Source: a virus. From it: a stretch of DNA of 37,745 bases. Below are positions 4,116 through 21,914 of this stretch, piece by piece. The stretch is taken from IMG/VR virus record IMGVR_UViG_3300005882_000006. One strand, 5' to 3'. The number at the start of each line of letters is the position of its first letter. The stretch's first letter is position 1. The position numbers and the translations under genes are program-made. Below the pieces are notes generated by a model. The model was given only the letters and a program-made list of their open reading frames with translations. It was not told the DNA's origin and searched no databases.

Positions 4116-4188
4116 TTTATTCCCCTTTCGTTATTCTTAATCTACACCACTTTATTTACACTGTAAAGCACTTTTTTATTTTATTTTT

Positions 4189-5559: not shown

Positions 5560-5572
5560 CAGAAGATTACAG

Positions 5573-5992
5573 TTAGCTTCTAAGCTCTTCTATTTCAACA
5601 TCGCACCGCCCTCGTAAAAATTCCTTCTCAAAGTGGTGCTCTCTATCTATGCCCATAACCTCAAATGTAGGCCATTTCACAAACTTATAGTTATCGTCTT
5701 TTAAAAGGCCAATACTCACCAAGGAATCAGCCGTGAATTTATGAATGCCAAACCCTACATTGTCCTCATCGAAATCGCCGTTACGTTCCATATAATATTT
5801 TAAATGTAACCTGATAGGGTTTTGAAATTGGTTTTTATTATACAAGCCTAAAGACTTTATATAATCATAGAATATCATCTTAGCATTGTGCTTTTCTCGA
5901 TGATGCCTATTAGCAAATGTATTTGCGTTTAGAGGGTAAGACTTCTTTTTTTTCTTACCAAGAATTATGCGTGTAGGTACTATGAACTTCAT
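5573..5992 (-). CDS. rusA: RusA-like Holliday junction resolvase
   Basis: Size 139 aa. The acidic motifs GDFDEDNVGFGIHKFTADSL and LLKDDNY fit the RusA D-x-D-N / K-x-x-x-D / DD pattern. Confidence 0.5.
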   Translation of the reverse strand: MKFIVPTRIILGKKKKKSYPLNANTFANRHHREKHNAKMIFYDYIKSLGLYNKNQFQNPIRLHLKYYMERNGDFDEDNVGFGIHKFTADSLVSIGLLKDDNYKFVKWPTFEVMGIDREHHFEKEFLRGRCDVEIEELRS

Positions 5993-6116
5993 TTAATTCT
6001 CTTTAAAAAAACATTCACCCCTGAAAGCCCGTTGCTCACTTTGATATATTTTTAGACTTTTAAAAAATGTTTTAAAATATATGTGGATTCTTTCTTTTAC
6101 AACGCAGGGGTAAATC

Positions 6117-7082: not shown

Positions 7083-8445
7083 GATGGCATCTCCATTTTT
7101 TCTTGAGGGTTATATTGAGCAGTTTCACGCACTGCACCGCGTATATTATCTGCGCTTAAATCAGCCATATGCTTAACCATTTGATTCATCATATGTTGCG
7201 CTTGATGTTCTTTGCGTTTGATATTCTGCACTACGGCGCCTTCTAATTCGCTCGCCACAAAATGCGCGTAAACTTCTTTAGTTTGCCCGAAACGGTAAAA
7301 TCTACGTATGGCCTGATATATCTGCTCAAAACTATCATTTAAACCGACAAATACTGTATTGTTGCAGTGCTGCCAATTCATACCAAACCCGCAAATAGAA
7401 GGCTTAGTGACTAGCTTTGTAATATTGCCTTTTGCAAAATCTTCTAAAATCTGCTCTTTCTTGTGGTCAGGCATTGAACCAGAAACTTCTACAGCTCCAT
7501 CGATTCTATCGGCAAGCATTGCACTTTCATCATTAAGATTGCACCACAAAACCCAAACTTCATTAGGATTGTCATTAACAATCTCAACTGCCTTATTAAC
7601 TCTATCTTCAATAGTTGCCCTGCGGGCTGATAAACGCTCGCTCATGCTTTGAGCTTCTAGCGGGAATAATAAACCAGTATCCACATTTGCTTTATATTCT
7701 GCACCTACTGTGTGTTGTATTTGATGTAATTTAGGAAGGATATATTTTGAGCCATCATATCCCAAATCAGCAGGGCTTTGATACATAACAGACCACGAAG
7801 CCATCCATTTCCAAAATTCACTCTCAGCATGGCCTTTTAAACGCCAATCTTGCGTCTTTGCAGCGTCATGTACAAAGAAAGTAGAAAGCATGTCTGTATA
7901 GCTCATAATACCGCAGAATTGAGAATGATTGCCCAGCTCCATATAATCGTTGGGGCTAGGGGTTGCCGTTGCTGCAAGCCTATAGGGTATTTGTGAGCAG
8001 CTCTCTATAAGTCGCGTTCTAAAATGGCCTGAGTGATTTTTTAAAATACTACTCTCATCTAATACAACCCCACCATATTTTGACAAATCAAAATGCTCTA
8101 TTTTTTGATAGTTGGTAATCTGTATAGGGTGGTCACATCCATCATTAACATGAATAGCATCTATCCCGAATTTTTCAGCTTCTCTTTGCATTTGAGCGGC
8201 AACCGCTAATGGTGTAAATATTAGAACTGGTTTTTTTCTGCTTCAAATAATTCATTCGCCCACGATAATTCCTTAATAGATTTACCCAAGCCAGTACCAG
8301 CAAATATGGCAGCTCTACCTCGTTTACAAGCCCACGATATAATGTCGCGTTGAAAATCAAACGCATCATCCGTAATACCAGAAGCAGAAAAACCAACTGG
8401 CGGAGCTGTTTTAGATTTCTTGTTTAAAAATAAATTATAATCCAT
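7073..8445 (-). CDS. SNF2-family helicase, interrupted: needs a -1 shift at A_AAA_AAC (plus-strand T7 run 8231..8237)
   Basis: The N-terminal ORF (ATG 8445, AAAGGAAAG SD) carries motif I, FAGTGLGKS, and stops at 8221. The -1 frame continues KKPVLIFTPLAVAAQMQREAEKFG and then LDESSILKN (motif II), LAATATPSPN (III) and QAIRRFYRFGQ (VI). Confidence 0.8.
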
Positions 8446-8481
8446 CTTCTTTCCTTTCGTTACTAATATAGTTATTAACAA

Positions 8482-8572
8482 AGTAAATCAATGTCAACTA
8501 AATTTTTTTATTTTTTTCTGTTTACAGCGTAAAATAAATTTGATAAGTTTATTTTAACGAAAGGGGAATGAA
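8482..8572. promoter_or_regulatory. Divergent early control region
   Basis: The plus strand has TTTACA (8521-8526), N17 with TG, and TAAGTT (8544-8549) ahead of the 8573 gene. The minus strand has a perfect TTGACA (8492-8497) ahead of the helicase but no good -10. The region is AT-rich with T-runs. Confidence 0.35.
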
Positions 8573-8839
8573 ATGATTTATGAAGTATATGTAACAGGCA
8601 CAACAAAAGTTATAGCAGATGCCTACAATAGAGAAGAGGCTATAAATAAAGCTCAAGAGTATTGCGATGATTACTGTTTAGGTGGTGAAGCGATGGTTTT
8701 GGAGTGTGAGCTAGTTATCAGTGATGACGATAAGGAAACAAGTGAAGATATTATGTTTTACCCTACATGGGATGAAAACGAAGTATCTGACTATGGTCAA
8801 CACTGCGTATGGAATAAAACACAAACAGGGTGTAAATAA
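8573..8839 (+). CDS. Highly acidic early protein (88 aa), first gene of the rightward operon
   Basis: Track ORF with AAAGGGGA SD. It has 20 Asp/Glu against 6 Lys/Arg. Confidence 0.6.
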   Translation: MIYEVYVTGTTKVIADAYNREEAINKAQEYCDDYCLGGEAMVLECELVISDDDKETSEDIMFYPTWDENEVSDYGQHCVWNKTQTGCK

Positions 8840-9042
8840 TGAACTACGATAAAATAAGAGAAGCTCTGGATATAGCTGAGCAAAAAATATTATCAGTATC
8901 TAAGATGTTACCAGAAGATGAGGTTAATATGGCGCTTGATGGGATTTATTATATGCGCCGCTCAATGCTTATTGAAAGCGCGTCATGTATAAATGAGTTG
9001 CCAGAACCGAATATAACTAAAGTAGTGAGGGCTGTATTATGA
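8839..9042 (+). CDS. Hypothetical protein (67 aa)
   Basis: Track ORF with a TAATG overlap with the upstream gene. Confidence 0.5.
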   Translation: MNYDKIREALDIAEQKILSVSKMLPEDEVNMALDGIYYMRRSMLIESASCINELPEPNITKVVRAVL

Positions 9043-9081
9043 CACAAGAAGCAGAATGGTACGAAAAAATGGAGCTAAGTA

Positions 9082-9222
9082 ATGATTAAGCTATACAGTA
9101 TTAAAGACGCGAGACCAGAAGGTGATGCTGAAGAATGGGGAGAATACTTCATTCATTTGCTGAGTAAACGTGAAAACACAGTAACAGCGCGTGAGATGAT
9201 ACGCAGGGAGACTATGAAATGA
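9082..9222 (+). CDS. Small ORF, 46 aa (MIKLYSIKDARPEGDAEEWGEYF...), not in track
   Basis: GGAG SD lies 7 nt upstream. The stop overlaps the ATG of the 9219 ORF (ATGA-type coupling). Confidence 0.4.
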   Translation: MIKLYSIKDARPEGDAEEWGEYFIHLLSKRENTVTAREMIRRETMK

Positions 9223-9425
9223 TTAATTTTAAAGAGAAGTGGATAGCCAAAAGAATACACGTCTACGCTATGAGGAGTTTTAATTATGCTGAGTGTGTAG
9301 ATGCGGCTCAATTCGATTGGGACTGGCAACACGGAGAAGCTAGAAAGCGATTAGATAAATGCTTTCCAGAATGTGCGCCACTGGCGATTTTAGCAGGTAT
9401 AAATTTCGGTGGTATTAATGACTAG
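9219..9425 (+). CDS. Hypothetical protein (68 aa)
   Basis: Track ORF, coupled to its neighbours on both sides. Confidence 0.5.
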   Translation: MINFKEKWIAKRIHVYAMRSFNYAECVDAAQFDWDWQHGEARKRLDKCFPECAPLAILAGINFGGIND

Positions 9426-9528
9426 AGAAGAAATGAAAACACTAGTAAGTGATTTAACAATAGAAGAGCTTAATTTATTAGGCTTTGAAATTGGCGTTGA
9501 ATTAATGGAAAGAGAAGGAAGATTATAA
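9418..9528 (+). CDS. Small ORF, 36 aa (MTREEMKTLVSDLTIEELNLLGFEIG...), not in track
   Basis: The start overlaps the end of the upstream ORF. The stop TAA shares its last A with the ATG at 9528. Confidence 0.35.
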   Translation: MTREEMKTLVSDLTIEELNLLGFEIGVELMEREGRL

Positions 9529-10436
9529 TGGATTTACAAAATAAAAGGCACTGGGACGCGTTGTGCATGACAGACCCAAAATATACGAAGGAATTTAAGA
9601 GGTCTGGCGGGTTTACAGGTACATCACAAAACCCAACTTACGCGGTAATGAAAATGACTGAACACTTCGGGCCAGTAGGTTTGGGTTGGGGTATGGAAAA
9701 GCCTGAATATGAATACATAAACGCATTTGAAGGGCAGGTTCTAGTGTATTGTAGTGTTGCTGTCTGGTATAAGGATGGAGATGAAAAAGCCTACGCTTAT
9801 GGCGAAGGTGGTGATGTGGCGGTAGGTAAAAATAAATATGGCCTATTTATTGACGATGAAGCCAGAAAAAAATCTTATACTGACGCACTTGGGAATGCTT
9901 TTAAATTTATAGGTAACGCTGCAGACCTGTATCTTGGCTTGTATGATGATAGCAAATATGTCAACAGCATGAAGGAAAGGTTTAAAGGCTCAGAAAAGCC
10001 ATTAGAATTAAACGATACTCAAGATAAAAAACTAAGAGATTTTAATTTCTTGCTAGGCTCATTAAAAGACCCTGTAGATATAAATTCATTAAATGATGAA
10101 TATGCAGATTTCATAAGGGACTTGCCAGAAAAAAAACAAGAGGAAGTGAATGAAAGTTTAATTCTGGCACGCAGCAGGGGCAAGGCAATTGTGGGAAATA
10201 CCTATCACTTTAAAAATGTTGAACACGCAAGGGCTTTCTACCAGAGTATGATAAAAAAAATTCCCGCGTCATCAGACATTAAGTCCATGAATGAATATAT
10301 GTCTAGATGGGAGGGTAAGTTTAAGGCTCTCGACAGGTCTTTAGCTAAAAAAGATGAGGTGGATGGCATGAAGCCTTACGAGTATATAATGAAACTTTAC
10401 AAGGAAAAAATAGGACAAGTTAATGCAGATAAATAA
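9528..10436 (+). CDS. Rad52/Sak-like single-strand annealing protein
   Basis: The segment GEGGD...DDEARKKSYTDALGNAFKFIGNAADLYLG resembles the Rad52/Sak family core. It lies in a module with SSB, RusA and a NinB-like gene. Confidence 0.55.
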   Translation: MDLQNKRHWDALCMTDPKYTKEFKRSGGFTGTSQNPTYAVMKMTEHFGPVGLGWGMEKPEYEYINAFEGQVLVYCSVAVWYKDGDEKAYAYGEGGDVAVGKNKYGLFIDDEARKKSYTDALGNAFKFIGNAADLYLGLYDDSKYVNSMKERFKGSEKPLELNDTQDKKLRDFNFLLGSLKDPVDINSLNDEYADFIRDLPEKKQEEVNESLILARSRGKAIVGNTYHFKNVEHARAFYQSMIKKIPASSDIKSMNEYMSRWEGKFKALDRSLAKKDEVDGMKPYEYIMKLYKEKIGQVNADK

Positions 10437-10641
10437 AATAAAGTGGCACGAGTTGCCACGAGGAAAGAATATTCATTTCTTTACAGGCACTCAAGAGGAC
10501 TGGACTAAGAAACTCGAAGAAAATAGCTCAGCTTTTAAGTTAGCTAAGTTAGCAGGGGTTAAAGTTTTAAGAGCTTATAATAAGAATGTGGCAAAAGGTT
10601 ATTCAACAGTTCGCCAGTTTAATTTTTACTTTCAAAGATAG
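10423..10641 (+). CDS. Hypothetical protein (72 aa)
   Basis: Track ORF; overlaps the end of the upstream gene by 14 nt. Confidence 0.45.
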   Translation: MQINKIKWHELPRGKNIHFFTGTQEDWTKKLEENSSAFKLAKLAGVKVLRAYNKNVAKGYSTVRQFNFYFQR

Positions 10642-10652
10642 GAGATAGAGTA

Positions 10653-11096
10653 ATGTCAGTTAATAAGGTAATTTTAGTGGGTAACATAGGCACAGACCCA
10701 GAGATTAGGGTTATGCAGTCAGGCGATGAGGTTGCGAACTTCTCACTAGCCACATCTCAAAGCTGGAAAGACAAGCAAACAGGTGAGCGTAAAGAAAAGA
10801 CAGAATGGCATAAAGTCGTCGTCTTCGGCGGTGTTGTTAAGGTGGTTAAGAACTACCTTAAAAAAGGCTCTAAAGTTTATATTGAGGGGCAACTTGAAAC
10901 ACGCTCATGGGAGCAGGACGGGCAAAAGAGATACGCAACCGAGGTTGTTTTACGTGGGTTCAACTCAAGCCTTGTTATGCTGGATGGTAAGAAAGAGGAA
11001 GCTAAGCAAGCTACAGACGCTTATGCTCCTGCTTCTGGTGGTGGGTTAGAGGATGAAATCCCATTTATGCGACACAATGACTTTGTAGGAGGTTAG
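10653..11096 (+). CDS. ssb: Single-stranded DNA-binding protein
   Basis: The OB-fold N-terminus is MSVNKVILVGNIGTDPEIR...TEWHKVVVFG. An acidic DEIPF motif sits near the C-terminus but is followed by 9 extra residues. Confidence 0.9.
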   Translation: MSVNKVILVGNIGTDPEIRVMQSGDEVANFSLATSQSWKDKQTGERKEKTEWHKVVVFGGVVKVVKNYLKKGSKVYIEGQLETRSWEQDGQKRYATEVVLRGFNSSLVMLDGKKEEAKQATDAYAPASGGGLEDEIPFMRHNDFVGG

Positions 11097-11097
11097 G

Positions 11098-11514
11098 ATG
11101 AAAATTAAATTAAAAATAGAAAAAGAATATGATGTTAAAAAGCTGGCTGCCAGTGTAGAGGTCAGGTACTGGGAGGACGCTTCTGTGGATGGTGTAGAAG
11201 ATACAAGTGGTGATTTAATTCCGTGCAGAAATGGTGATTGTTTTGAGCCTATTATATGCTTGTATAGCGGAATCATTTTAAATTGGGAACGTGGTAAGGA
11301 TGCAGAGATACATTATAAAGTCTGCGACGCTGGGGAATATATTCTTCTTGATGACGAAGATAACGAGGTTATTAAAATTGATGGATATGTCATTGACATG
11401 ATGTGCCCAGAAGGCGGCGGGTATGGTGATTACGTTATAATGAATGTTGGTAAAGAAGGGGATATTCAAAATTGGAAGGTATCTTTTGATGAATTTACTG
11501 ATACCGAAGACTGA
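11098..11514 (+). CDS. Acidic hypothetical protein (138 aa)
   Basis: Track ORF with GGAGG SD inside the ssb 3' end. Confidence 0.55.
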   Translation: MKIKLKIEKEYDVKKLAASVEVRYWEDASVDGVEDTSGDLIPCRNGDCFEPIICLYSGIILNWERGKDAEIHYKVCDAGEYILLDDEDNEVIKIDGYVIDMMCPEGGGYGDYVIMNVGKEGDIQNWKVSFDEFTDTED

Positions 11515-11836
11515 ATATATACGCGATAAAAAGCACTTAAAGTTTGTAGCATCTCTTCCTTGTATATTGTGTATGAGGAAAGATGTTCAAGCAGCGCATA
11601 TTCGGTCAGGTAATGGTGCAGGTATGGGGCTAAAATCTGGAGATAACTTTACAGTCCCACTCTGCATATCATGCCACAAGCACCAACATAATGTTGGGAA
11701 TGAGAAGTCGTTCTGGCGTTCGTTTGGTGGTATTGATAAAGCTTCGGCGACAGCTAATGAGCTGTATAAGCATAGCGGAGATATACCAGAGGGATTATTG
11801 ATAGTAGGTAAGTTTTACAATGATTATAAAAGATGA
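11489..11836 (+). CDS. Cys/His-rich HNH-like (DUF968-type) nuclease-associated protein
   Basis: The motif LPCILCMRKDVQAAHIRSG...VPLCISCHKHQH is present. The start was moved to the ATG at 11489 behind GGAAGG. Confidence 0.45.
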   Translation: MNLLIPKTEYIRDKKHLKFVASLPCILCMRKDVQAAHIRSGNGAGMGLKSGDNFTVPLCISCHKHQHNVGNEKSFWRSFGGIDKASATANELYKHSGDIPEGLLIVGKFYNDYKR

Positions 11837-12233
11837 GCAATCAAGATTAAAAGCTATTGAGCTTATAATGAATTGCAAAATTCCTGCGACCATATCTATC
11901 ACGGATGGTCAATCTAGGAGTTCATTACAAAATGCCCAACAGTGGCGTTGGTGTCAGCTTATCGCAAAGCAAAAGGGCGATGAAACACCATGGGATATTC
12001 AGGCGTATAATAAGCTTCATATTGGAGTGCCCATCATGCGTGAGGTCGATTGGTTTCGTGAGAAGTATGATGTAATCATTAAGCCGCTTGAGTATGAAAA
12101 GAAACTAAATCTTATGAGTGGTGACATGTTTCCCGTAACAAGACTTATGAGTAAAGAACAAAAATCAAGATACCTAGACGAGGTTGCTCGTTACTGGTCA
12201 GGAAAAGGGTTTTATTTAGAGGGGAGAATATGA
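11820..12233 (+). CDS. NinB/Orf-like recombination mediator
   Basis: The segment RSSLQNAQQWRWCQLIA parallels the lambda NinB segment RSLDQNRKLWACLGDVS. Size and context fit. Confidence 0.4.
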   Translation: MIIKDEQSRLKAIELIMNCKIPATISITDGQSRSSLQNAQQWRWCQLIAKQKGDETPWDIQAYNKLHIGVPIMREVDWFREKYDVIIKPLEYEKKLNLMSGDMFPVTRLMSKEQKSRYLDEVARYWSGKGFYLEGRI

Positions 12234-12442
12234 ACAATTCCATTGAAGGACGACAAAAAATAAAAGAAGAAACGCTTGGGTATATTAAGCAGTATAAAAA
12301 AGACTATGGTTACTACCCTAGTTTTGCCCAAATAGGCAAGCACTTTAATATCAGCAGGGTTGCAGGGCGCAATAGGGTGCTGAGATTAAAAAATGAATTA
12401 AAAAACATTTATGCGTATAAAAGTACTTTACAAAGTAAATAA
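12230..12442 (+). CDS. Small winged-helix/LexA-N-like DNA-binding protein (70 aa)
   Basis: The segment GYYPSFAQIGKHFNISRVAGRNRVLRLK is HTH-like. ATGA overlap with the upstream gene. Confidence 0.4.
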   Translation: MNNSIEGRQKIKEETLGYIKQYKKDYGYYPSFAQIGKHFNISRVAGRNRVLRLKNELKNIYAYKSTLQSK

Positions 12443-12478
12443 ATTGATATAGGGTATAATTAATAAAGGGGATATAAA

Positions 12479-12643
12479 ATGATTGTTTGCAGTTTTGATG
12501 GTCTTGAGTTTTACAAAGGTTATCTTGGTGCAAATGATTTATCGCTCAAAGATATTAAATATCGAGTAGCTATATCCCTTGGTCTTAAACCGAATCAAAT
12601 AAGGGTACGCTATGTTAACATTACACACACTACCAAAGACTGA
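12479..12643 (+). CDS. Small ORF, 54 aa (MIVCSFDGLEFYKGYLGANDL...), not in track
   Basis: AAAGGGGA SD lies upstream and a perfect TATAAT hexamer sits at 12455-12460. Confidence 0.35.
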   Translation: MIVCSFDGLEFYKGYLGANDLSLKDIKYRVAISLGLKPNQIRVRYVNITHTTKD

Positions 12644-12710
12644 GTACGATTTAACCAAAGAGGAGCTAATCGAAGCTATTCGTGAATGCTCATTATCAAC
12701 TGTTCACTGA
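12612..12710 (+). CDS. Small ORF, 32 aa (MLTLHTLPKTEYDLTKEELIEAIRE...), not in track
   Basis: It overlaps the previous small ORF and ends 7 nt before the next ATG. Support is weak. Confidence 0.2.
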   Translation: MLTLHTLPKTEYDLTKEELIEAIRECSLSTVH

Positions 12711-12717
12711 GGTTATT

Positions 12718-12939
12718 ATGGATGTCAGAGAATGCCAGCGAAACAGTGCAACAGCCCTCAGAACAAGAGTTAAAGTTATGGCGCATCAGGTTGTGGCGAT
12801 TTGTCAGGATTTAGAAATTGAGGAAAGTGGCGCTAATATAGCACTTTTAAAAGAATGTATCTCAGAAATGCTCATTTTTGCTGCTGAATACAACGCATAC
12901 AGAAACAGTTCAAGGATGTTTAAAGATGAACGAACATAA
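12718..12939 (+). CDS. Hypothetical protein (73 aa; start moved from GTG 12682 to ATG 12718)
   Basis: GAGG SD lies upstream of the ATG at 12718. Confidence 0.45.
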   Translation: MDVRECQRNSATALRTRVKVMAHQVVAICQDLEIEESGANIALLKECISEMLIFAAEYNAYRNSSRMFKDERT

Positions 12940-13132
12940 CCAAGCACTAATCTTTGTAACAGCCCTACTTATATTCGGTATAGCCTTTCTGGTGATAGCC
13001 ATTAAGGAAAGCCAGCCAATAGCATTAGGCACAGAATGCCGTAGTGGGCTTAAGCAGGATACATTATACGCAGGACGAATTGATTGTGCTGCGGTTGGAT
13101 TAAGTAACATAGAGCCAGCAGGAGGTGAGTAG
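12926..13132 (+). CDS. Small single-pass membrane protein (68 aa)
   Basis: The product MNEHNQALIFVTALLIFGIAFLVIAIKESQ... has one N-terminal TM helix and two Cys in the tail. AAGGA SD; start moved to the internal ATG. Confidence 0.5.
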   Translation: MNEHNQALIFVTALLIFGIAFLVIAIKESQPIALGTECRSGLKQDTLYAGRIDCAAVGLSNIEPAGGE

Positions 13133-13134
13133 AT

Positions 13135-13293
13135 ATGGACTACAAAGTTTTAATACTGCTTTGCGTAATGATTATTAGCTATGCAGGATGTACTGCTTAC
13201 ATAGAAGGGGCAGATAGTTTGTCAAAAAATTTGAATTGCACATTAAATCTAAAAATAGACGATAAGGAGCAGCAAAATGACAATGCCAGATAA
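13135..13293 (+). CDS. Small lipoprotein, 52 aa, not in track
   Basis: The product MDYKVLILLCVMIISYAGC-TAYIEG... has a signal peptide with an A-G-C lipobox-like cleavage site. AGGAGG SD; the ORF begins 2 nt after the membrane-protein stop. Confidence 0.5.
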   Translation: MDYKVLILLCVMIISYAGCTAYIEGADSLSKNLNCTLNLKIDDKEQQNDNAR

Positions 13294-13708
13294 GATATAC
13301 GCAGGGACAACCCTTAATCAAAAAACTTGTGGCAGTTGGTTTGAAGAGCCATCTATGGGTTACAGAGAACCAGAAACACCCTACACCCGCACCGACCTAT
13401 ACGAAGCCAAGCAAGCCGAACGTGACTCTCTTAAATCTGAAAACACACGCCTTCGTGAGCGCTTAGAAATGGGCTACGCCTACACACTGGACGGTGAAAA
13501 GGTAGAGTGCGAAATAAGCGAAAGCACAGATGGGATTGCCTGCCGTGATGCCACTATAAAGCTTTTAGAGCGTGAGATTAAAAAGATTAAAGCACAAGCA
13601 GATGCGCTGTGTGATGCTTTAACACATATCTTGCTAGTTCATAGTGATACAGCCGAGGAGTTTGCGCAACAAGCAATAGACAACTACAAACATAAAGAGA
13701 AGGAGTGA
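13277..13708 (+). CDS. Hypothetical coiled-coil protein (143 aa)
   Basis: Track ORF. Confidence 0.5.
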   Translation: MTMPDKIYAGTTLNQKTCGSWFEEPSMGYREPETPYTRTDLYEAKQAERDSLKSENTRLRERLEMGYAYTLDGEKVECEISESTDGIACRDATIKLLEREIKKIKAQADALCDALTHILLVHSDTAEEFAQQAIDNYKHKEKE

Positions 13709-13712
13709 AACT

Positions 13713-13838
13713 ATGTTTACAGAAGAACAAATAGAAATTGCAAAATCATACGAGGAAAGAGCATTTGCAGCGCTCAATAATCCAGAAGAATTTGAGCGTA
13801 TTATGGCCGAATTTGAGGAAGTTAAGGCAAGCTGGTAA
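13713..13838 (+). CDS. Small ORF, 41 aa (MFTEEQIEIAKSYEERAF...), not in track
   Basis: AAGGAG SD lies upstream. Two GC-rich hairpins follow (13842-13857 and 13861-13900). Confidence 0.35.
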   Translation: MFTEEQIEIAKSYEERAFAALNNPEEFERIMAEFEEVKASW

Positions 13839-13898
13839 GCAATTCCCTAACGGGAATAGTGGGGCGGTGAGGAAACTCATAGAGTAAGTACGGCCGCC

Positions 13899-13959
13899 CC
13901 GCGATTGATGATATTAAAAGATGTCTTGATAAACTTATGGAGGAGCTAAATGAAAACTA
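13899..13959 (+). repeat. 61-bp perfect direct repeat, left copy (cassette boundary)
   Basis: Identical to 16988..17048. It contains a gene 3' end remnant, a GGAGGAG SD and ATGAAAACTA. Confidence 0.95.
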
Positions 13960-15038
13960 CAATTATTGATAAAAATTATAAAGGATTGAAGCAGGTCGAA
14001 AATGGAGATTATGTTCTCAATGGCGACCTGGTTATAGAGGGAAATCTTGAGGTAAAACTTGACGATAGGCTTGTTGTAAAAGGATTTAATACAGTTAATG
14101 GTTGGATGAAAGTTGATAAATCAATCATTGTCGAAAAGTATCAGAAAGTCGGTGAGTATCAGGAAATCGGCGGGTCTCAGGAAATCGGTGAGTATCAGGA
14201 AATCGGCGGGTCTCAGAAAATCGGCAGGTCTCAGAGAATCGGCGGGTTTCAGGAAATCAGTGAGTGTCAGAAAATCGGCTGGTCTCAGGAAATCGGTGAG
14301 TATCAGGAAATCGGTGGGCGTCAGAATATCGGTGGGCGTCAGAAAGTCGGTGAGTATCAGGAAATCTGTGGGCATCAGGAAATCGGCGGGTCTCAGGAAA
14401 TCGGTGAGTATCAGAGAATCGGCGGGTTTCAGGAAATCGGTGAGTGTCAGAAAATCGGTAGGTATCAGGAAATCGGTGGGTCTCAGAAAATCGGCAGGTC
14501 TCAGAGAATCGGCGGGTTTCAGGAAATCGGTGAGTGTCAGAAAATCGGCTGGTCTCAGAAAATCGGCGGGTCTCAGGAAATCGGTGAGTATCAGAGAATC
14601 GGCGGGTTTCAGGAAATCGGTGAGTGTCAGAATATCGGTGGTAACTCTGACGTAAAAGCAGGACGCTGCGTCATGTTGTCAATCACAATTAAAGGCACGA
14701 TGAAAACAGGACTGAGGATTTTTGCAGGGACATGTAATTGGAGAGACATTTCGGAACAAGAAAAAACAATCACCTGCGCCAAAATGGAAGGCGGTGAGAT
14801 TTGCTACGGTATCTTAAAAGAAAGCGGTAACACTGGCGCTGGCCTTAATATATTCGACTGGCTTAATGAACGTGGATACCTCATCACCAAAGAGAAGCTT
14901 GATAAGATTGAGGGGTTGAAGAAATCTTTCACCCCCATAGACAAACTAGAAAGCTATGACGAATACATGACAGAAAATGAAGTGAATGCTTACAATCTAG
15001 CGTTACATGATGCTGTAAAGATACTTAAGGGGGAGTGA
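13950..15038 (+). CDS. Hexad-repeat (G-x-x-Q-x-I x27) beta-solenoid-like protein with unique N- and C-terminal domains
   Basis: Track ORF with GGAGGAG SD. The frame runs through non-repetitive flanks. The N-terminal LNGDLVIEGNLEV...VVKGFNTVNGWMKV is already beta-helix-like. Confidence 0.7.
   Translation: MKTTIIDKNYKGLKQVENGDYVLNGDLVIEGNLEVKLDDRLVVKGFNTVNGWMKVDKSIIVEKYQKVGEYQEIGGSQEIGEYQEIGGSQKIGRSQRIGGFQEISECQKIGWSQEIGEYQEIGGRQNIGGRQKVGEYQEICGHQEIGGSQEIGEYQRIGGFQEIGECQKIGRYQEIGGSQKIGRSQRIGGFQEIGECQKIGWSQKIGGSQEIGEYQRIGGFQEIGECQNIGGNSDVKAGRCVMLSITIKGTMKTGLRIFAGTCNWRDISEQEKTITCAKMEGGEICYGILKESGNTGAGLNIFDWLNERGYLITKEKLDKIEGLKKSFTPIDKLESYDEYMTENEVNAYNLALHDAVKILKGE
14151..14636 (+). repeat. Tandem 18-bp repeat x27 with near-identical 72- and 90-bp higher-order blocks
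   Basis: Direct reading: 14205-14294 vs 14475-14564 differ at 3 of 90 positions, and 14385-14456 vs 14565-14636 differ at 1 of 72. Confidence 0.95.
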
Positions 15039-15247
15039 TGGAAACTGGAGAGCTATTAGCCTTATGTAGAGAATTAAAAGGTGTGTCACTTCGAGAAGTG
15101 GAAAATAAAACAGGAATTTCAAATGCTTACCTAAGTCAAATAGAGAGCGGTAAAATCAAAAACATATCATTTACAAACGCTGTGAAGTTGTGTCGTTTCT
15201 ACAACCTCACACTTGATAGATTAGCGGAGACAACCAATGAACGATGA
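15038..15247 (+). CDS. XRE-family HTH transcriptional regulator (69 aa)
   Basis: The segment SLREVENKTGISNAYLSQIESGK is a classic XRE HTH. The ATG shares 1 nt with the stop of the repeat protein (TGATG). Confidence 0.8.
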   Translation: METGELLALCRELKGVSLREVENKTGISNAYLSQIESGKIKNISFTNAVKLCRFYNLTLDRLAETTNER

Positions 15248-15356
15248 AACAAAACCAGCAATCGGAAGTGATTTAAAAATCTATCTAAAAGGTGAAAGCC
15301 CTTTTGTTACGGTAATCAGATACACAGATATCGGACTTAATTCTGCATTTTTATAA
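15237..15356 (+). CDS. Small ORF, 39 aa, not in track
   Basis: It overlaps the XRE 3' end, and its stop shares an A with the next ATG (TAATG). Confidence 0.3.
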   Translation: MNDETKPAIGSDLKIYLKGESPFVTVIRYTDIGLNSAFL

Positions 15357-15526
15357 TGATTTGCGCTGCGGTGGTTCTTTATCAGGCTTTCGTTAATCAC
15401 GATCATTTGTGCATTATTCTTATTTGCATCCACCTCGGTATAGCGTATGGCGACAGCGTTTATAAGAAGCGGCACGATAGCGTTGGATACGGATTTATTA
15501 AAGGATTTACAGGAGAGAAACCATGA
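15356..15526 (+). CDS. Small ORF, 56 aa (MICAAVVLYQAFVNHDHLCIILICIHLG...), not in track
   Basis: It is coupled on both sides (TAATG upstream, ATGA with the 15523 gene). The N-terminal half is hydrophobic. Confidence 0.35.
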   Translation: MICAAVVLYQAFVNHDHLCIILICIHLGIAYGDSVYKKRHDSVGYGFIKGFTGEKP

Positions 15527-15906
15527 CCGACACGATTGAGATGATTGAGGAAGCTTTAGCGGCGTATAAAGGATGGATATGCGATGGTGAATTATTGATG
15601 CCACGGAACTCTATTGACGCGCTGACCAAAGCAGAGACCAGATTGTGTAATAGCGGAAAAACAATCAAAGCCACCCTATCCGTCCTAAAGCGCATAGCAA
15701 GCGGGGATGATTGGTTTGATATTGAGAGTGCGCCAACAAAAAATGGGGGCAATGGAAAAATTATTTTGCGCTCTCCTAATTATCGAGAAGACCAGATTGT
15801 TTATATTGATAACTGGTGGAGGGGTGGACATTCTGCGGAAAGCAAGCCCTTTCAATGGAAACACATCGACCACGCCGAACACATTAAAATGCTCTTAGAG
15901 CAATAA
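15523..15906 (+). CDS. Hypothetical protein (127 aa)
   Basis: Track ORF with GGAGAG SD. Confidence 0.55.
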   Translation: MTDTIEMIEEALAAYKGWICDGELLMPRNSIDALTKAETRLCNSGKTIKATLSVLKRIASGDDWFDIESAPTKNGGNGKIILRSPNYREDQIVYIDNWWRGGHSAESKPFQWKHIDHAEHIKMLLEQ

Positions 15907-16001
15907 CTAAAAGGATCAAAAGATGAATAAAGACCAAGAGCAACAGATAGACGCGCTTATTTGCGACAATTCAAATTAAGGAAGCTAGAAAGGCATAGAA
16001 A

Positions 16002-16244
16002 ATGAGCATACGTGAAAAGATAATCGAAAATGTAGCAAAAACCATGCGTGAAGAAACATATACTTGTGACAATGACGAAAGAATAATAATTGAAACATTA
16101 AAGGAATCCCTAAATAACTGCATTATTATCGATAATGTGGATTTTCAATCAGCATTGCAAACAGCCGAAACTTTAGGATTGTCGAATATTGAAACAAAAG
16201 CGCTAGTCAGTGAGCTTATACAATCAGATATAGGGAGCAGATAA
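16002..16244 (+). CDS. Hypothetical protein (80 aa)
   Basis: Track ORF. Confidence 0.5.
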   Translation: MSIREKIIENVAKTMREETYTCDNDERIIIETLKESLNNCIIIDNVDFQSALQTAETLGLSNIETKALVSELIQSDIGSR

Positions 16245-16246
16245 AA

Positions 16247-16537
16247 ATGAGCGATAATAAAAAAACGTTAGAGGCTTGGGAACGTGTAGCAGCATACGCA
16301 ATAGACATGTGCAGCCTATCTGGAAATGCCAGTACAACCTACGCGATAAGGAAAGATATAGAAACAATCCTAAGCGCCCTCAAAGCCCTGCGAGACGAGA
16401 ACAAGCGGTTGCGGGATGCTTTGGAGTTTTATGCAGACCCTAATTCATATCGCAAGGACATGGATAGCGGACAAACGGATATTTATAACGACAGAGGCCA
16501 ACGCGCCCAGCAAGCCATAAACCCAAAAGGAGAGTGA
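16247..16537 (+). CDS. Hypothetical protein (96 aa)
   Basis: Track ORF. Confidence 0.5.
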   Translation: MSDNKKTLEAWERVAAYAIDMCSLSGNASTTYAIRKDIETILSALKALRDENKRLRDALEFYADPNSYRKDMDSGQTDIYNDRGQRAQQAINPKGE

Positions 16538-16894
16538 GTGAAGCGGGTATTTAGAATACGCAGAAAAGACACGGGGCAGTTTTTCGCAGGGCTTGCATAC
16601 CCTTGGATAGACAGCGGTCATCCAGTCTGGAATGATAAGGGCGCTTTCTATCGAGATATAAGTGTTGTTATTGCTTGGCTGCGTGTTCTGTCTTGCGACT
16701 GGTCATCAATAAAAGAGCCAGCAAACAAGATAACATGCGTCACTGCCAAGAAGCTTATAAAATACATAGATCACACCTTTGATGAAAAGATGCTTGTGCT
16801 GTATGAGGTTGTTGTGAATGACATAACTATAAACGGAGAAGAGGTTATAAAGGCTTGCGATTTTACAAAGGAAGCTACCCACGCAGGCGCCTAG
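16538..16894 (+). CDS. Hypothetical protein (118 aa, GTG start)
   Basis: Track ORF. AAAGGAGAG SD sits in the upstream gene's end, and the GTG directly follows the TGA. Confidence 0.5.
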   Translation: MKRVFRIRRKDTGQFFAGLAYPWIDSGHPVWNDKGAFYRDISVVIAWLRVLSCDWSSIKEPANKITCVTAKKLIKYIDHTFDEKMLVLYEVVVNDITINGEEVIKACDFTKEATHAGA

Positions 16895-16923
16895 AGCGTA
16901 TTGACGCTATAGACTGGGAGGGG

Positions 16924-17049
16924 ATGAAGAAACCAAACTACGGAAATATGGCACTTAAAAGCATTAACAAAACAAAGGGCTACAACGCCGCGATTGATGA
17001 TATTAAAAGATGTCTTGATAAACTTATGGAGGAGCTAAATGAAAACTAG
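16924..17049 (+). CDS. Small protein, 41 aa (start moved to ATG 16924); its 3' end forms part of the 61-bp repeat
   Basis: GGGAGGGG SD lies upstream of the ATG at 16924. The track version (16855) overlaps the previous gene by 40 nt. Confidence 0.4.
   Translation: MKKPNYGNMALKSINKTKGYNAAIDDIKRCLDKLMEELNEN
16988..17048 (+). repeat. 61-bp perfect direct repeat, right copy (cassette boundary)
   Basis: Identical to 13899..13959, at an offset of exactly 3089 bp. Confidence 0.95.
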
Positions 17050-17380
17050 AATACAAGAAGCGCTTGAGCAACTTCCGTTAATGCACCACATAAGCACAGG
17101 TGAACCGTTGTCTGACGAAAGCATAAAGCGAAATGAAGCCATAGACACAGCGATAGCAATCCTAGAACACCTCTTAACGCTAGAGCTAGACGAGGGTATG
17201 CCGAATGAAGTTTGGGCAAAATCAAAAGGATATGCCAATACAGGGAGCGCAGAAAAGCCAAATCGTTTTATGATTGGTGAGTGGTGGGCAGATGATGAAT
17301 ATGGAACTCGCTACACCCAACCCGCCGCGATACTTGCAGAGATAGAAAAGAAGATAGGGGAGATAAATGAAACCAACTAA
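17039..17380 (+). CDS. Hypothetical protein (113 aa); start codon lies inside the right 61-bp repeat
   Basis: Track ORF. Confidence 0.55.
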   Translation: MKTRIQEALEQLPLMHHISTGEPLSDESIKRNEAIDTAIAILEHLLTLELDEGMPNEVWAKSKGYANTGSAEKPNRFMIGEWWADDEYGTRYTQPAAILAEIEKKIGEINETN

Positions 17381-17650
17381 AGAAGAAATACAGGCAGCAC
17401 TGGATGCTTTGGATAGGATGAGAGAATGTAACCACTCGACAGAAAGTGAGTACTTGCGCGACATTGAAGCAATCAAGAAAGCCCTTGACGCTTTCTGGGA
17501 GAGAGAACTTGACGAGATAAAAAACTTGAGGATGCTTTAAAAGACTCCTATTTGAATGAACACACTTATGCCCCTGTTCATATCATCATGAGGGCAGCCA
17601 AAGAGTACCTAGAGCTTATTAAAAAGGATGCAAAAACATTAAAGACCTAA
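17367..17650 (+). CDS. Hypothetical protein, interrupted: the zero frame stops at 17540, and the -1 frame from A_AAA_AAC (17519..17525) continues to 17650
   Basis: The zero frame reads MKPTKEEIQAALDALDRM...ELDEIKNLRML*. The -1 frame reads ...EIKK-LEDALKDSYLNEHTYAPVHIIMRAAKEYLELIKKDAKTLKT*. It has no start codon of its own and opens only 5 codons before the heptamer. Confidence 0.45.
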
Positions 17651-17699
17651 AGAATGCGTTTCGTTCCAGTAGTCAAATATATCTGAAAGCTCAGTATCG

Positions 17700-20600
17700 C
17701 TAAAGACCAAAACCATAACGACCATTCATAGCATCAAACGCGCCCTCACGTTCCGCAGCACTTAGGCTATCAAGCGTGTGCAGATACCCGTAAAGCTTGC
17801 CTATACCGTTATCAACCTGAGAGCCGCCGACCTTAACTCGAACCTTGCTTGTGTAACCATCAGACGGGTCAAAATTAAGCGTGGCTGTATTGTGTCCGTT
17901 CACGTAAACATTGCAGCTTGATGATGATATGAAATCTAGTGTGATTATAAGCTTTTCACTTGCACCTATTCCTGTCGTGATTGTCTGATTTGACGCTGCT
18001 TCATTCTGTGAATACACAAGAGTGCCATTTGAACGAAGATACATTTGAGCGCTTGTTGTTACAGTTCCGACCGAGTTAGTAAACGTAATAAATGCACCGA
18101 ATGCTGGTAAAACGGACGGTGTTTCAATAGCAAACATGATTGTTAGGTTTCCAGTAGCGCCATAGTCCGTGTCGTAGTCAAGAATTGTGTCAGTATCAAG
18201 TACGAGGTGGTCAGTTGAGAATACTGGTTCTGTGCCTGATATATTAAACCCTGATACAGTACCGCTCACAGTGTCAATATCACTAACATTTGAGCCGCTT
18301 GAATATGTCTTAGAGCTGTCCGTTGCTTCTAAATAGGCTACCTGATTATCGAGTGATGCAATATAATCTGTGATACTAACACTATAGTCATGAACAAACA
18401 TCAACGGTAGCTCACGCGCACTGTTTGATTTGATACAGTTATTAACATTGTCAGAATAATAAGCGTTATTGCCGTAGATGTAGTACAGGTTAAGCTCGTC
18501 ACTTGCTTCAATCGCAGCGTCAAGAGTTAGGCGAACCGTGCTTGCATCTTGTCTGTCTTGTGAAGTGATTGTAACCTCTTCACCGTCTGCGTCAAGCAAC
18601 GCAAACCCTTCAATCCCACTTGTTGGGGTGAAGTCTGTTGAGCCATAATGAGTGATGCCAACATCAACATACGTATTACCAATAACACCCGCAGCAGATG
18701 AAATAACAGGCGGTTTAGCTGCATGTAGATCAATAATTCCGCGTTGCTCCATGTCAAACCAAAGCAAGCGATAGCCCATAGTCGTGTAATCTTCTGCATA
18801 ATAGTGGGCAGAACCTAAGTTGTTATCAAATCCCCATGTTGCAGGTGCGTTGAAGTCATAAGCCCAATCAAGCTCTTGGACTAGCTCAAGCTCTGCTTCA
18901 CGGAACGCTTGTAGAATAATGTCAGGGGTGTTTGATAAGCGCCCACAAGCAAGCTGACTGTACATGACCATGTTAGGGTAGCGTCTACGCAACTCAAGCC
19001 AGCACTGCTTTGTGCCGTACTTCCATAAATCCATTGGTACTGTTTCAGGCTTGGTTTCATCGAAAGGTAGATCAAACTGCCACTGATCCCATGCACATAC
19101 TTTAACATTGTCTTCATTAAAGCCGTTGCGCCTATGGTGGTCATTGATAGAAATATCCCAAACGTTACCAAAAGTGTCTTCGTCTTCGTCCCATAAATAC
19201 GTGTTTAAAGACGCTGCGTTAGGGTCAAGCTGTCTGTTACGCTTAAGCATCGCCGAGCCACCTTGTATGCGTGGGTCATAAAGAGACGTTAGCATAAAGT
19301 CAGATACATATTTTCGCGCTTCGTTGTAGAAAGCAACCTCGCCATCACCTCTAAACACAATGTTAGTGTTAGGGTAAAGCATAATTTTATTGATGTTTGA
19401 TTGTGGCCCTAATAGATAAACAGTCTTATTTGAACCAATTGATTTTTCAAGCCCTTGTTCATTTGTCAAGGTATCATTAAAAACTTTTAGTTCATGCAAA
19501 ACCATAGAAGTTCTTAGTGATGAATTGGTTGTGTCTCTAAGATAAAATGTATCAAGTCCTATTGGAGAAGCACTTATATCATTAGTGAATTGTAATTCAC
19601 CTTTATCATACACAAGCATTGTGTCCTCATCCCAAGTGATGAGGGTGCTGTCATAACGTGGGGTTTTTGAGCGTATTCCGTAATTGTAGGTGAAATCACT
19701 AGAACCGCCAGACACAAAAGAAACTTTGTCATCTCCTGTGTCAGTAACACGTTTTGCAATAGCATTATTTGCAGGATTGCTTGAATTTGCTAATGCCCAG
19801 CCGTCTTGTCCTGTGTCTCCACCCCACATGATAGAACGAACATAAAATGCCCCCACATCATCTAATTCCCCAAAGTTAGTTACTGAAACAATCTCATCAC
19901 CACGAGATGCAGACGCTCCTGCTGTATCAATGGGGAAAGTCAAGTGGGGTAAGTATTTAGAGCCTGTATAGCCGTCTTCTTCTTGCATATCAGCCATAGC
20001 AAAATGAATTGTCATACCATCAGGCACAACAAGACGCATTTTATCACTGCTAGAAGCGGGGGTAATGTCTAGTTTTGAAGCCCAAGCCCACTCACGGGCT
20101 AGTAGGTATTCTTCACCTTCTCCACCAATTGAGAGTGTTGCATAAAGCTCATCACTTCCTGACACAACCTTATAAGTAAGCTGTGTGTTATGTGCGTTCG
20201 TATTGCCTACTGCACCAGCCCATTCAATCGTAACGTCTGAACCGCTCGCTGCAACTTCCCATACTTGGTCATTATTTGTAAAGCTAGAATTAAACGGCGC
20301 TGTTGCGTCAGTTACTACGGTCACTGAACCACTACCAGTGTCGAAGTGATCTGTAACAGCATCGGCACTTGGACGAGCATACTCAATTTTATTTGTGCGG
20401 TCAACTTGACTAAGTAAACCATTCAATTCACCACCACCAAAAGTACGCTCATAAATAGGTTCACTTGCTGCTGATAAAGCCCACTCGCCATCACTGTCAA
20501 TATAAACCGCCTGACTTGTTCTGGTTGTTGAAACGCCGATTGTTGAAGCAACCTCTGTAAAATCATGCCCTATGCCGTAAATAGATATGCCGTCACTTGT

Positions 20601-21914
20601 GAATGAGTTTATTGCTGCTTCTATGCGAGGAGCAATAATAGCTTGTTCTGCTTGCGCTAAGTGTAAGCCATCATCTTGTGTAGCTTCAATGTCTGAAATA
20701 TCAACAAAAGCCATCCATGGAACAGACGCAGCCAGTTCTTTCTGGGCTTCTTGTATCGCTGACCAATTAGCTTGTGTTGCGCTATGAGTGGTGTCTAGAG
20801 CAGTAACCCACCTATGCAGAGAAACAATAACAATCGGGTGGTCGCCAACAACTTTTCTATACTCTGTGAATAATTCTAAAACTGCTGCTTTGTAATCTTC
20901 TTTACTTGTTCCAGCAATAGCATCACTCTCACCTTGGTGCCATACTGTATATGTGAGTGTTCCTGCTTGTTTAGCCATTAAAGCGCGGTTCACTAAAGCA
21001 TGGAAACGCTGTGCAATTACGCGGTCAGCAACTGTAAAAGAAGTGATATATGGAACCCAGTCGGCAATTTCTGTGTTGCCTTTTGCTGCGGGTACGGCAA
21101 ACCACTCAAAATCACTGTCTGCGGTTTTAAGCGCGTCAACCACAAGCCCCTGATAGCCAAGTGCTGCTGTATCTGACAAAACACTACTCAATATTACTGT
21201 GTCTGTGTCATCATCAGCTGGGTCAGAATAATCTTCATAATCACCTGAATTTGTGAGAAGCTTGTTAGTATTTGTGTATGTATGTGAGCCTGTGGATGCT
21301 ACGCCTACCGAGTTCGATTGCCCCGCAAATACAACGCCGCGCCTTGTATTGTCGTATGTGATTGTAGGGATGATGTCAGTTGAGTTTTTACTCAAGCTGC
21401 GTGCAAAAGCTTCAGTTGAACCAGTGTCATATAAGGCAACATATTCAATCGTTCCTTGCAAATCAGCAACACGCTGAGCCAAATAAACATTAGACACAGT
21501 GTCAGGAAAGCTTAAACCGCTTTCCACATAATATATCTCTTCGCCGTTCATATATATTTGAAGACTTCCATCTTTCCAACGCACCACGAACCTCTGGCGA
21601 TTAGGTAGGAAAGTACCGTTAATAGTGTTGATAATTTCAGCCGTTTGAGAAACACCACCAACTGTTATGATTATTTGAAAAGTTTCAGTATCACGATGGA
21701 ATAGCTCAAAACGGTTGTTGTTGTTAGTGTAGAATGAAAAAATAGTTTCATAGTTTGTGCGCGTGTATGGTGTTGTGGTTGTACTGTCTATCACAACCAT
21801 TCCTTCTTCACCACTATACAATGTAGCGTCTGGTGTTGATTTTTCAAACGCAGAAAATACAGGCTTTAACCCACCATCCCTAACAAAACCAAGTCCAAAT
21901 CCTAAACCTAACAT
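17700..21914 (-). CDS. Giant tail fibre/spike-like protein (1404 aa) with LamG-like ends and a sialate-O-acetylesterase-type (SGNH-like) domain
   Basis: Esterase blocks are FAGQSNSVG (aa 196-204), WHQGESD (aa 325-331) and DDGLH (aa 414-418). A second, degenerate copy runs GPQSN...AWDQWQFD...GSAHY. Jelly-roll-like N- and C-terminal regions. Confidence 0.6.
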   Translation of the reverse strand: MLGLGFGLGFVRDGGLKPVFSAFEKSTPDATLYSGEEGMVVIDSTTTTPYTRTNYETIFSFYTNNNNRFELFHRDTETFQIIITVGGVSQTAEIINTINGTFLPNRQRFVVRWKDGSLQIYMNGEEIYYVESGLSFPDTVSNVYLAQRVADLQGTIEYVALYDTGSTEAFARSLSKNSTDIIPTITYDNTRRGVVFAGQSNSVGVASTGSHTYTNTNKLLTNSGDYEDYSDPADDDTDTVILSSVLSDTAALGYQGLVVDALKTADSDFEWFAVPAAKGNTEIADWVPYITSFTVADRVIAQRFHALVNRALMAKQAGTLTYTVWHQGESDAIAGTSKEDYKAAVLELFTEYRKVVGDHPIVIVSLHRWVTALDTTHSATQANWSAIQEAQKELAASVPWMAFVDISDIEATQDDGLHLAQAEQAIIAPRIEAAINSFTSDGISIYGIGHDFTEVASTIGVSTTRTSQAVYIDSDGEWALSAASEPIYERTFGGGELNGLLSQVDRTNKIEYARPSADAVTDHFDTGSGSVTVVTDATAPFNSSFTNNDQVWEVAASGSDVTIEWAGAVGNTNAHNTQLTYKVVSGSDELYATLSIGGEGEEYLLAREWAWASKLDITPASSSDKMRLVVPDGMTIHFAMADMQEEDGYTGSKYLPHLTFPIDTAGASASRGDEIVSVTNFGELDDVGAFYVRSIMWGGDTGQDGWALANSSNPANNAIAKRVTDTGDDKVSFVSGGSSDFTYNYGIRSKTPRYDSTLITWDEDTMLVYDKGELQFTNDISASPIGLDTFYLRDTTNSSLRTSMVLHELKVFNDTLTNEQGLEKSIGSNKTVYLLGPQSNINKIMLYPNTNIVFRGDGEVAFYNEARKYVSDFMLTSLYDPRIQGGSAMLKRNRQLDPNAASLNTYLWDEDEDTFGNVWDISINDHHRRNGFNEDNVKVCAWDQWQFDLPFDETKPETVPMDLWKYGTKQCWLELRRRYPNMVMYSQLACGRLSNTPDIILQAFREAELELVQELDWAYDFNAPATWGFDNNLGSAHYYAEDYTTMGYRLLWFDMEQRGIIDLHAAKPPVISSAAGVIGNTYVDVGITHYGSTDFTPTSGIEGFALLDADGEEVTITSQDRQDASTVRLTLDAAIEASDELNLYYIYGNNAYYSDNVNNCIKSNSARELPLMFVHDYSVSITDYIASLDNQVAYLEATDSSKTYSSGSNVSDIDTVSGTVSGFNISGTEPVFSTDHLVLDTDTILDYDTDYGATGNLTIMFAIETPSVLPAFGAFITFTNSVGTVTTSAQMYLRSNGTLVYSQNEAASNQTITTGIGASEKLIITLDFISSSSCNVYVNGHNTATLNFDPSDGYTSKVRVKVGGSQVDNGIGKLYGYLHTLDSLSAAEREGAFDAMNGRYGFGL

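Follow-up and report, generated by a model that had tools for sequence, protein, structure and literature searches.

Classical deletion mutants of phages T7, T4 and lambda are deletions between short direct repeats, and morons are independent transcription units inserted between conserved phage genes. The recombinase-less genomic island H47 is also excised through flanking direct repeats (PMC5426353). In exchanges between phage genomes, Orf contributes to mosaicism, Orf-type mediators contribute to such exchanges, and the minimum homology for Red-beta is about 30 bp (PMC3945230); conserved boundary sequences acting as linkers have been proposed for lambdoid phages (PMC3974807). The subject of this analysis is a 61-bp perfect direct repeat, designated R, and the 3.09-kb block of accessory genes that its two copies bound in the viral record IMGVR_UViG_3300005882_000006, analyzed over its full 37,745 nucleotides (the window). 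The duplicate copies of R probably arose recently from a single gene junction and now provide a substrate for deletion of the block by R × R exchange. This reading calls for no new mechanism, as direct-repeat deletion and homology-driven mosaicism are already well established.

The sequence of R is CCGCGATTGATGATATTAAAAGATGTCTTGATAAACTTATGGAGGAGCTAAATGAAAACTA. Its copies lie at 13899-13959 and 16988-17048, an offset of 3089 bp, and are identical at 61 of 61 positions, as the first-pass annotation of this DNA had reported. Beyond a sole mismatch (C13960 versus G17049), three more bases match, giving an extended R of 64/65 identical positions. The longest exact dispersed repeat in shuffled versions of the window was 14-18 nt (20 shuffles), and R is the only long dispersed repeat in the window besides two tandem arrays and a 99-nt terminal overlap. 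A search of the window with sub-patterns of R, allowing up to three mismatches, returned these two copies and no third. The sequences flanking the two copies are unrelated on both sides, so that the boundaries are sharp, and R is located on a gene boundary, running from the stop of open reading frame (ORF) X to the start of the next gene. In the notation used here, A is the left flank, B the cassette and A' the right flank. The features at the two junctions are as follows.

13713-13838, plus strand: 41-amino-acid (aa) ORF, which belongs to left flank A and is the final gene ahead of the left junction, present in the independent contig L002; no family matches
13899-13959, plus strand: R-left, the orphan copy; 3' end of an X-type ORF whose 5' part is missing, Shine-Dalgarno sequence (SD) GGAGGAG, then ATG AAA ACT
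16924-17049, plus strand: ORF X, 41 aa, with its last 20 codons in R-right and a TAG stop that uses G17049, the first base past the repeat
16988-17048, plus strand: R-right, the copy in coding context; spanned by contig L003, with contig L001 starting at 16988 and contig L004 ending at 17048
17039-17380, plus strand: p113, an ORFan gene (right flank A'), with its SD and first three codons inside R-right

R-right consists of codons 22-41 of ORF X (ending ...AIDDIKRCLDKLMEELNEN*), the SD GGAGGAG and the ATG (17039) of the 113-aa p113; gene callers gave X a TTG start at 16855, which would make it 64 aa. Upstream of R-left, the X frame extends over just six open codons and offers no start, which identifies this copy as an orphan 3' fragment. 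It holds the SD and ATG (13950) of a 362-aa hexad-repeat gene, which shares 13 of the 14 nt after the ATG with p113. The first-pass description of the right copy as the 3' end of a 41-aa gene overlapping the start of its neighbor, and of the left copy as an orphan at the foot of a hairpin, was thereby confirmed.

In its organization, the locus follows the pattern of the direct-repeat deletion substrates long known from phage genomes. Its repeats are identical and longer than the bound of at least about 30 bp, and no dedicated recombinase or transposase accompanies them: scans of 13700-17400 with Pfam, PHROGs, NCBIfam and PADLOC found no integrase, transposase or homing endonuclease in or beside the block. 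As in direct-repeat deletions and H47, identical repeats flank DNA that may be dispensable, its predicted loss would be precise without a dedicated recombinase, and one repeat copy would be kept. Three properties set it apart from those systems: at 61 bp, R is long enough for efficient exchange driven by a phage recombinase; R is itself a functional gene junction that leaves the downstream gene with SD and start; and loss is read here from footprints in the assembly graph. Since R duplicates a gene junction in full, loss of the block should leave the downstream gene expressed. This complete-junction duplicate, and assembly-graph footprints that point to a natural polymorphism, make the locus mildly distinctive.

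The consequences of exchange were followed in silico. The window represents a circular phage genome with a unit length of 37,646 bp, and its ends carry a 99-nt exact direct repeat (1-99 and 37647-37745), a terminal overlap that fits construction by a de Bruijn assembler with a final k of 99. R × R recombination removes exactly 3089 bp and converts the 37,646-bp genome to one of 34,557 bp (34,656 bases from the 37,745-base window), with the SD, ATG and full frame of p113 retained; as reciprocal product, it yields a circle of 3,089 bp that joins X to the hexad gene. The earlier proposal that the cassette could be lost precisely, leaving the gene at 17039 intact, is thus borne out in silico. In the phage, the exchange would proceed by homologous or single-strand-annealing recombination; it would excise the same 3089 bp, p113 keeping its SD and start unchanged, and a reciprocal or unequal product would carry a cassette-R-cassette junction.

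Independent assemblies of the same phage bear on whether the duplication is genuine and on whether the deletion occurs. Contigs with 100% identity to the window were found by exact-protein look-ups in the JGI metagenomes 3300005086 and 3300005078, which are MEGAHIT assemblies of North Sea oil-field production waters (PMC5563965). Their positions on the window are given below.

3932-13959, sample 3300005086: contig L002, covering the hairpin-R junction
16988-3935, across the origin, sample 3300005086: contig L001/L016, covering R-p113
14591-17085, sample 3300005086: contig L003, spanning cassette (X5')-R-p113
15334-17048, sample 3300005078: contig L004

The hairpin-R, X5'-R and R-p113 junctions, and the full cassette-R-p113 arrangement, are each supported by independent contigs. 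An assembly artefact, in which a shared 61-mer led to a chimera of a phage of 34.6 kb with another strain or with a separate circle of 3.09 kb, would account for the older contigs breaking at R and for the 13959/13960 join being seen solely in the window. Against it, the k of 99 exceeds the length of the repeat, so that each junction in the window needs real 99-mers and a 61-bp repeat is unable to cause a false join; L003, from another sample, runs 37 nt past cassette-R into p113; and a cassette joined to A' needs a left partner, the only contexts seen to precede R being A and the cassette itself. An artefactual duplication, a concern raised by the first-pass annotation, is therefore extremely improbable, given the identical contigs from two other metagenomes.

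The end coordinates of these contigs proved informative. Node-centric de Bruijn unitigs were simulated for several populations and k values, with the following outcomes.

Cassette-plus genomes only, k=81 or 99: no ends; one unbranched circle, as in the window
Any mixture, k=61: ends at 13958, 16989 and 17047; not observed
Cassette-plus with the R × R deletion product, k=81: cassette unitig ending at 17067; not observed
Cassette-plus with the R × R deletion product, k=99: unitigs 16988..13959 (34,618 nt) and 13862..17085, and a 135-nt junction unitig
Cassette-plus with the cassette-R-cassette junction, k>61: cassette unitig 13899..17048

The ends observed in sample 3300005086, at 16988 (start of L001), 13959 (end of L002) and 17085 (end of L003), are those predicted for the mixture at k=99. 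The overlap between L003 and L001 is 98 nt long, or k-1. L001 and L002 together amount to 34,622 nt; the excess of 4 nt over the predicted 34,618 is their overlap at an unrelated dead end. At 135 nt, the junction unitig would be too short to pass the usual 200-nt cut-off for reported contigs. Three exact coincidences of this kind are very unlikely to result from coverage gaps, which argues that sample 3300005086 holds two kinds of genome. The data thus lend indirect support to the coexistence of cassette-plus genomes with an A-R-A' variant, for which precise deletion is the simplest case. Coverage was low in sample 3300005078, where L004 stops at 17048, as the simulation predicts when a cassette-R-cassette junction is present; this is only suggestive of a footprint left by an excised circle or tandem duplication. 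More generally, exact contig end coordinates in de Bruijn assemblies can expose structural variants that are in the minority and whose junction unitig falls below the reporting length. If read mapping confirms the polymorphism, the locus would be a clean natural case in which an uncultured phage population is still gaining or losing an accessory block through repeats, with breakpoints resolved to the base.

Two further contig ends were noted. At 3932-3935, the end of L001/L016 (3935) and the start of L002 (3932) overlap by just 4 nt inside a leftward gene; the break is of the dead-end kind, unlike a k-1 branch, and may reflect a gap in coverage or a physical genome end. L003 starts at 14591, inside the hexad array, a start not predicted by the k=99 graph of the window sequence, and it may reflect heterogeneity of repeat number in the population.

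The same three contig ends in sample 3300005086 fit equally well with an alternative cassette between the same repeats, and R lies exactly on a gene boundary with a portable SD and start. Both features are compatible with R being a linker conserved among phages, of the kind proposed for lambdoid phages, at which alternative cassettes are swapped by homologous recombination, the second variant then carrying another cassette. Searches for R elsewhere speak against this. The exact 61-mer is absent from 2.9 million viral contigs, a codon-degenerate 30-mer of R had no match in those contigs, and the metagenome collection, evidently lacking the source samples, gave no true match to either form. A single codon-degenerate match among the metagenome contigs (L006) was attributed to chance, since that contig has no similarity to the window. 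X and p113 matched only themselves among 5.8 billion proteins, GenBank phages gave no megablast match for 12500-18500 and no tblastn match for p127, p118 or p143, and no contig was found that places the 41-aa upstream ORF or p113 in another context.

Relative searches with p113, p143, the tail-fiber C-terminus and a p143 alignment led to one relative contig, L005 (IMGVR_UViG_3300026518_000030, identical to JALUXV010000495.1), which is binned in an Alteromonadaceae metagenome-assembled genome (MAG). This distant relative shares with the window the end of the p143 gene (to 13711), two patches of the hexad 3' region and the tail fiber from 17700. The patches, at 14878-14912 and 15012-15040, correspond to 5680-5714 and 5781-5809 of L005 with 93-94% nucleotide identity. 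L005 is without 15041-17699 and most of 13712-14877. The two genomes differ over 13712-14877 and 15041-17699, with breakpoints other than 13899, 13959, 16988 and 17048, and L005 shares part of the "cassette" (the hexad 3' end) but not p113, which lies outside it. The suggestion that the interval reflects module exchange at a conserved gene-boundary sequence was accordingly not upheld: R, X and p113 have no matches elsewhere, and the sole relative differs at breakpoints other than R. The linker explanation is decidedly unlikely, and R, found in no other genome, is not a shared linker. The locus does resemble the mosaicism attributed to Rad52-like and Orf/Rap functions (PMC3945230), and the linker idea (PMC3974807), in having its breakpoint at a gene boundary in a phage that encodes Orf (NinB), SSB, RusA and a possible Rad52-like protein; unlike those systems, the homology lies within one genome and not between genomes. 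As separate observations on L005, the two patches lie in a 126-aa gene in which the sequence between them has diverged, and the right-hand homology stops right where the next gene starts, as is classic for mosaic joints at gene boundaries.

Evidence on the origin of the duplication came from the hexad gene. The unrelated 52.7-kb viral contig L015 (IMGVR_UViG_3300033153_007861) contains two tandem hexad-repeat genes at 5008-6126. Both are preceded by an identical SD/start segment and a 114-nt exact stretch is common to them; the second copy has a 14-nt deletion and a frameshifted N-terminus. The first L015 gene begins MKVVIDEKYKGLEKVE and the window gene begins MKTTIIDKNYKGLKQVE, and the N-terminus MKTTIIDKNYKGL of the window protein is homologous to MKVVIDEKYKGL of the L015 hexad gene. 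This homology indicates that the start at the edge of R-left is native to the hexad family and was not donated by X/p113. The first-pass view that the left copy donates SD and start to the hexad gene therefore stands as regards the presence of a strong SD and an ATG, found in both copies, but not as regards a foreign start. L015 resembles the window in that an exact direct repeat duplicates the beginning of a hexad gene (SD, start and first codons); there, a whole gene is repeated head to tail about 950 bp apart, whereas the window duplicates only the junction, with eight other ORFs in between.

Since R is continuous on its 5' side with X and on its 3' side with a native hexad N-terminus, X-R-hexad was presumably the original adjacency, and the order of events at the origin is reconstructed on that basis. 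R would be a recent intragenomic duplication of one gene junction, comprising the 3' end of X, the SD and the opening codons of the gene that follows, that arose during recombinational reshuffling of an accessory-gene array. The present order, R-hexad...X-R, would be a circular permutation of X-R-hexad with R at both ends, reached either through a tandem duplication trimmed on both sides or through crossover with a circular or concatemeric copy. An illegitimate join at the foot of a GC hairpin would have closed the left end, and on the right the body of p113 would have been fused after codon 3-5. The perfect identity of about 40 non-coding, non-SD bases in the orphan copy argues that the event was recent.

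The structures at the left junction bear on how the copy was made, and consist of two adjacent hairpins.

13842-13857, plus strand: hairpin 1 (ATTCCC / GGGAAT, loop TAAC)
13859-13902, plus strand: hairpin 2, a 10-bp GC-rich stem (13859-13868 / 13893-13902) whose 3' arm takes the first 4 nt of R-left

Both hairpins had been predicted previously, the second as a 7-bp stem (13861-13867 with 13894-13900); both are real, and the second stem reaches 10 bp. Hairpin 2 lacks a following T-run and hence is no canonical terminator, nor was it picked up by the terminator scan. Within R itself, at 13904-13930, there is a third hairpin, which is imperfect. The left boundary of R falls within the 3' arm of the 10-bp GC hairpin, and 13 of 14 nt after the ATG are common to both downstream genes, observations that would suit a short-patch event in which only 61-65 bp were copied, by template switching at the hairpin or by microhomology-mediated conversion via ATGAAAACTA.AAT, the 3.09 kb never having been an inserted unit. 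In addition, L005 has a gene with the same C-terminal patches at the hexad position, so that the hexad gene is not obviously cargo. This explanation is unlikely: it requires that a start region was replaced precisely and in frame at one of the loci, and it leaves unexplained why both sides of R are native in the permuted order X-R-hexad. It and junction duplication by reshuffling predict the same deletion and polymorphism, and would be separated only by closer relatives.

The sequence identity of the duplicate might instead have been kept by selection if R were a shared cis element, either a translational operator or an RNA hairpin (13904-13930 / 16993-17019), that co-regulates the hexad gene and p113. 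The identical SD/start regions and the internal hairpin before both genes are compatible with this, and the local fold is more stable than shuffled sequences (z-score of -3.1). No Rfam match was found, however, and there is neither a third copy nor any conservation to compare; the identity of 40 non-coding, non-SD nt is more simply explained by recency. Shared regulation as the reason for the duplicate is consequently highly improbable.

Recombination functions that could act on R are encoded elsewhere in the phage genome.

5573-5992, minus strand: RusA-like Holliday junction resolvase
9528-10436, plus strand: p302, candidate Rad52-like single-strand annealing protein, directly upstream of SSB
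10653-11096, plus strand: SSB
11820-12233, plus strand: NinB/Orf-type recombination mediator

The exchange at R would presumably be carried out by phage SSB, NinB/Orf, RusA and the candidate p302, or by host functions; R is about twice as long as the minimum homology for Red-beta (PMC3945230). The p302 family has 3906 homologs and is labeled "exonuclease" in PHROGs; Pfam Rad52_Rad22 was matched by 2 of 42 family members (best E = 1.8e-4), and an AlphaFold2 single-sequence model of p302 was unusable (pLDDT 39). The first-pass annotation attributed recombination to the phage's own annealase; that such a protein is present is not established, p302 being the only candidate and its similarity to Rad52 marginal. 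In a distant relative, L012, which shares SSB (61% identity), HNH (49%) and NinB (55%) with the window, an ERF annealase (1342-1959) occupies the p302 slot upstream of SSB. There is no real similarity between p302 and the L012 ERF, and the pair looks like a non-orthologous replacement in the recombinase slot.

Several points weigh against a recent junction duplication that is now subject to deletion. The A-R-A' junction was not seen directly in any contig or read; the variant is deduced from contig end coordinates together with an assumed final k of 99, and a different cassette between the same repeats would give identical contig ends. The join between R-left and the hexad gene (13959/13960) is backed by the window alone, as exact look-up of the hexad protein returned no independent contig for it. 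With a chance of about 1 in 20 to 1 in 40, the end of L004 could be a coverage dead end. Rad52 is the best match of p302 in PDB, NCBIfam and Pfam, at marginal E values of 0.02-0.12, and the order of events at the origin is reconstructed with the help of only one, partial relative. Junction duplication followed by R × R deletion nevertheless remains the probable explanation.

Two other explanations treat the block as a mobile unit. In the first, the 3089-bp unit (cassette plus one R) would be a recombinase-less mobile cassette that cycles between integrated, excised-circle and tandem forms via the general recombination of the phage, using the portable stop-SD-start junction as its attachment sequence, so that the first gene of the cassette and the resident downstream gene are always expressed. 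If so, the ends 13959/16988/17085 (deletion) and 17048 (cassette-R-cassette) would be footprints of the cycle in two samples. This is very unlikely. In the second, the block would be an element with a dedicated enzyme, moved by att-site recombination, by transposition with target-site duplication, or by endonuclease homing, and the presence of direct repeats flanking a discrete block with a regulator is in keeping with it. Yet no integrase, transposase or homing-endonuclease family occurs in or beside the block, there are no terminal inverted repeats inside the R copies, and 61 bp is far beyond the length of target-site duplications (2-15 bp). The HNH gene (11444), at a distance of 2 kb, belongs to a conserved SSB-HNH-NinB module. 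A dedicated enzyme is barely credible, and the transposon, integrase (attL/attR) and homing models were rejected for lack of their defining features.

The genes between the repeats gave little indication of function.

13950-15038, plus strand: hexad-repeat protein gene, 362 aa, with a tandem array of 18-bp units at 14137-14641
15035-15247, plus strand: XRE-family HTH_3 regulator, 70 aa
15237-15526, plus strand: two short ORFs of 39 and 56 aa, of doubtful coding status
15523-15906, plus strand: p127, a small protein; other phages have distant homologs in arrays of small genes
16002-16894, plus strand: p80, p96 and p118, small ORFs without family matches

The first-pass inventory of a repeat protein, an XRE regulator and about eight small ORFs was accurate for the first two; seven small ORFs were counted. 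Only the helix-turn-helix regulator and the hexapeptide-repeat protein were recognized in the block by Pfam, PHROGs, NCBIfam and PADLOC, and PADLOC reported no defense system. The hexad array contains 28 copies of the 18-bp unit with 78-81% matches, and sub-threshold matches to the hexapeptide beta-helices of LpxA, LpxD and GlmU make the protein look like one of the hexapeptide, left-handed beta-helix type. The cassette genes show no paralogy with the flanking genes, and a simple whole-gene duplication was rejected on that ground. The composition profile showed no foreign-DNA signal and no GC discontinuity.

The block is like morons in lying as an accessory segment at the end of an operon and in being missing from the sole known relative; unlike them, it has no predicted flanking promoter or terminator and has a duplicated target sequence at its bounds. 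A scan for consensus promoters found no sigma-70-like promoters above background, and no plus-strand terminators were found at the boundaries. A moron was rejected because its own flanking promoter and terminator were not found in that scan.

The surrounding genome encodes a P22-type portal, an SU10-type adaptor and a major head protein. R lies within a rightward small-gene operon (~8573-17650) that codes for p302, SSB, a DUF968/HNH protein and the NinB/Orf mediator and converges on a tail fiber/spike gene (17700-21914, minus strand; 1404 aa) with a SASA (sialate O-acetylesterase-like) domain. The tail fiber has 70-80% nucleotide identity to that of the relative binned in the Alteromonadaceae MAG. 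The phage, from oil-field production water, is of the P22-portal type, and the locus is the accessory-gene array that ends its early operon. Elsewhere in the genome, the leftward block contains two more tandem arrays with a 12-bp period, at 2821-3144 (18 copies) and 4999-5046 (3 copies). A 56-nt segment occurs as an inverted pair with 73% identity, at 4112-4167 (minus strand) and 8521-8576 (plus strand); both copies end AAAGGGGAAT..ATGA directly before the first gene of the leftward or rightward block, and they look like a shared promoter/leader of two divergent early units.

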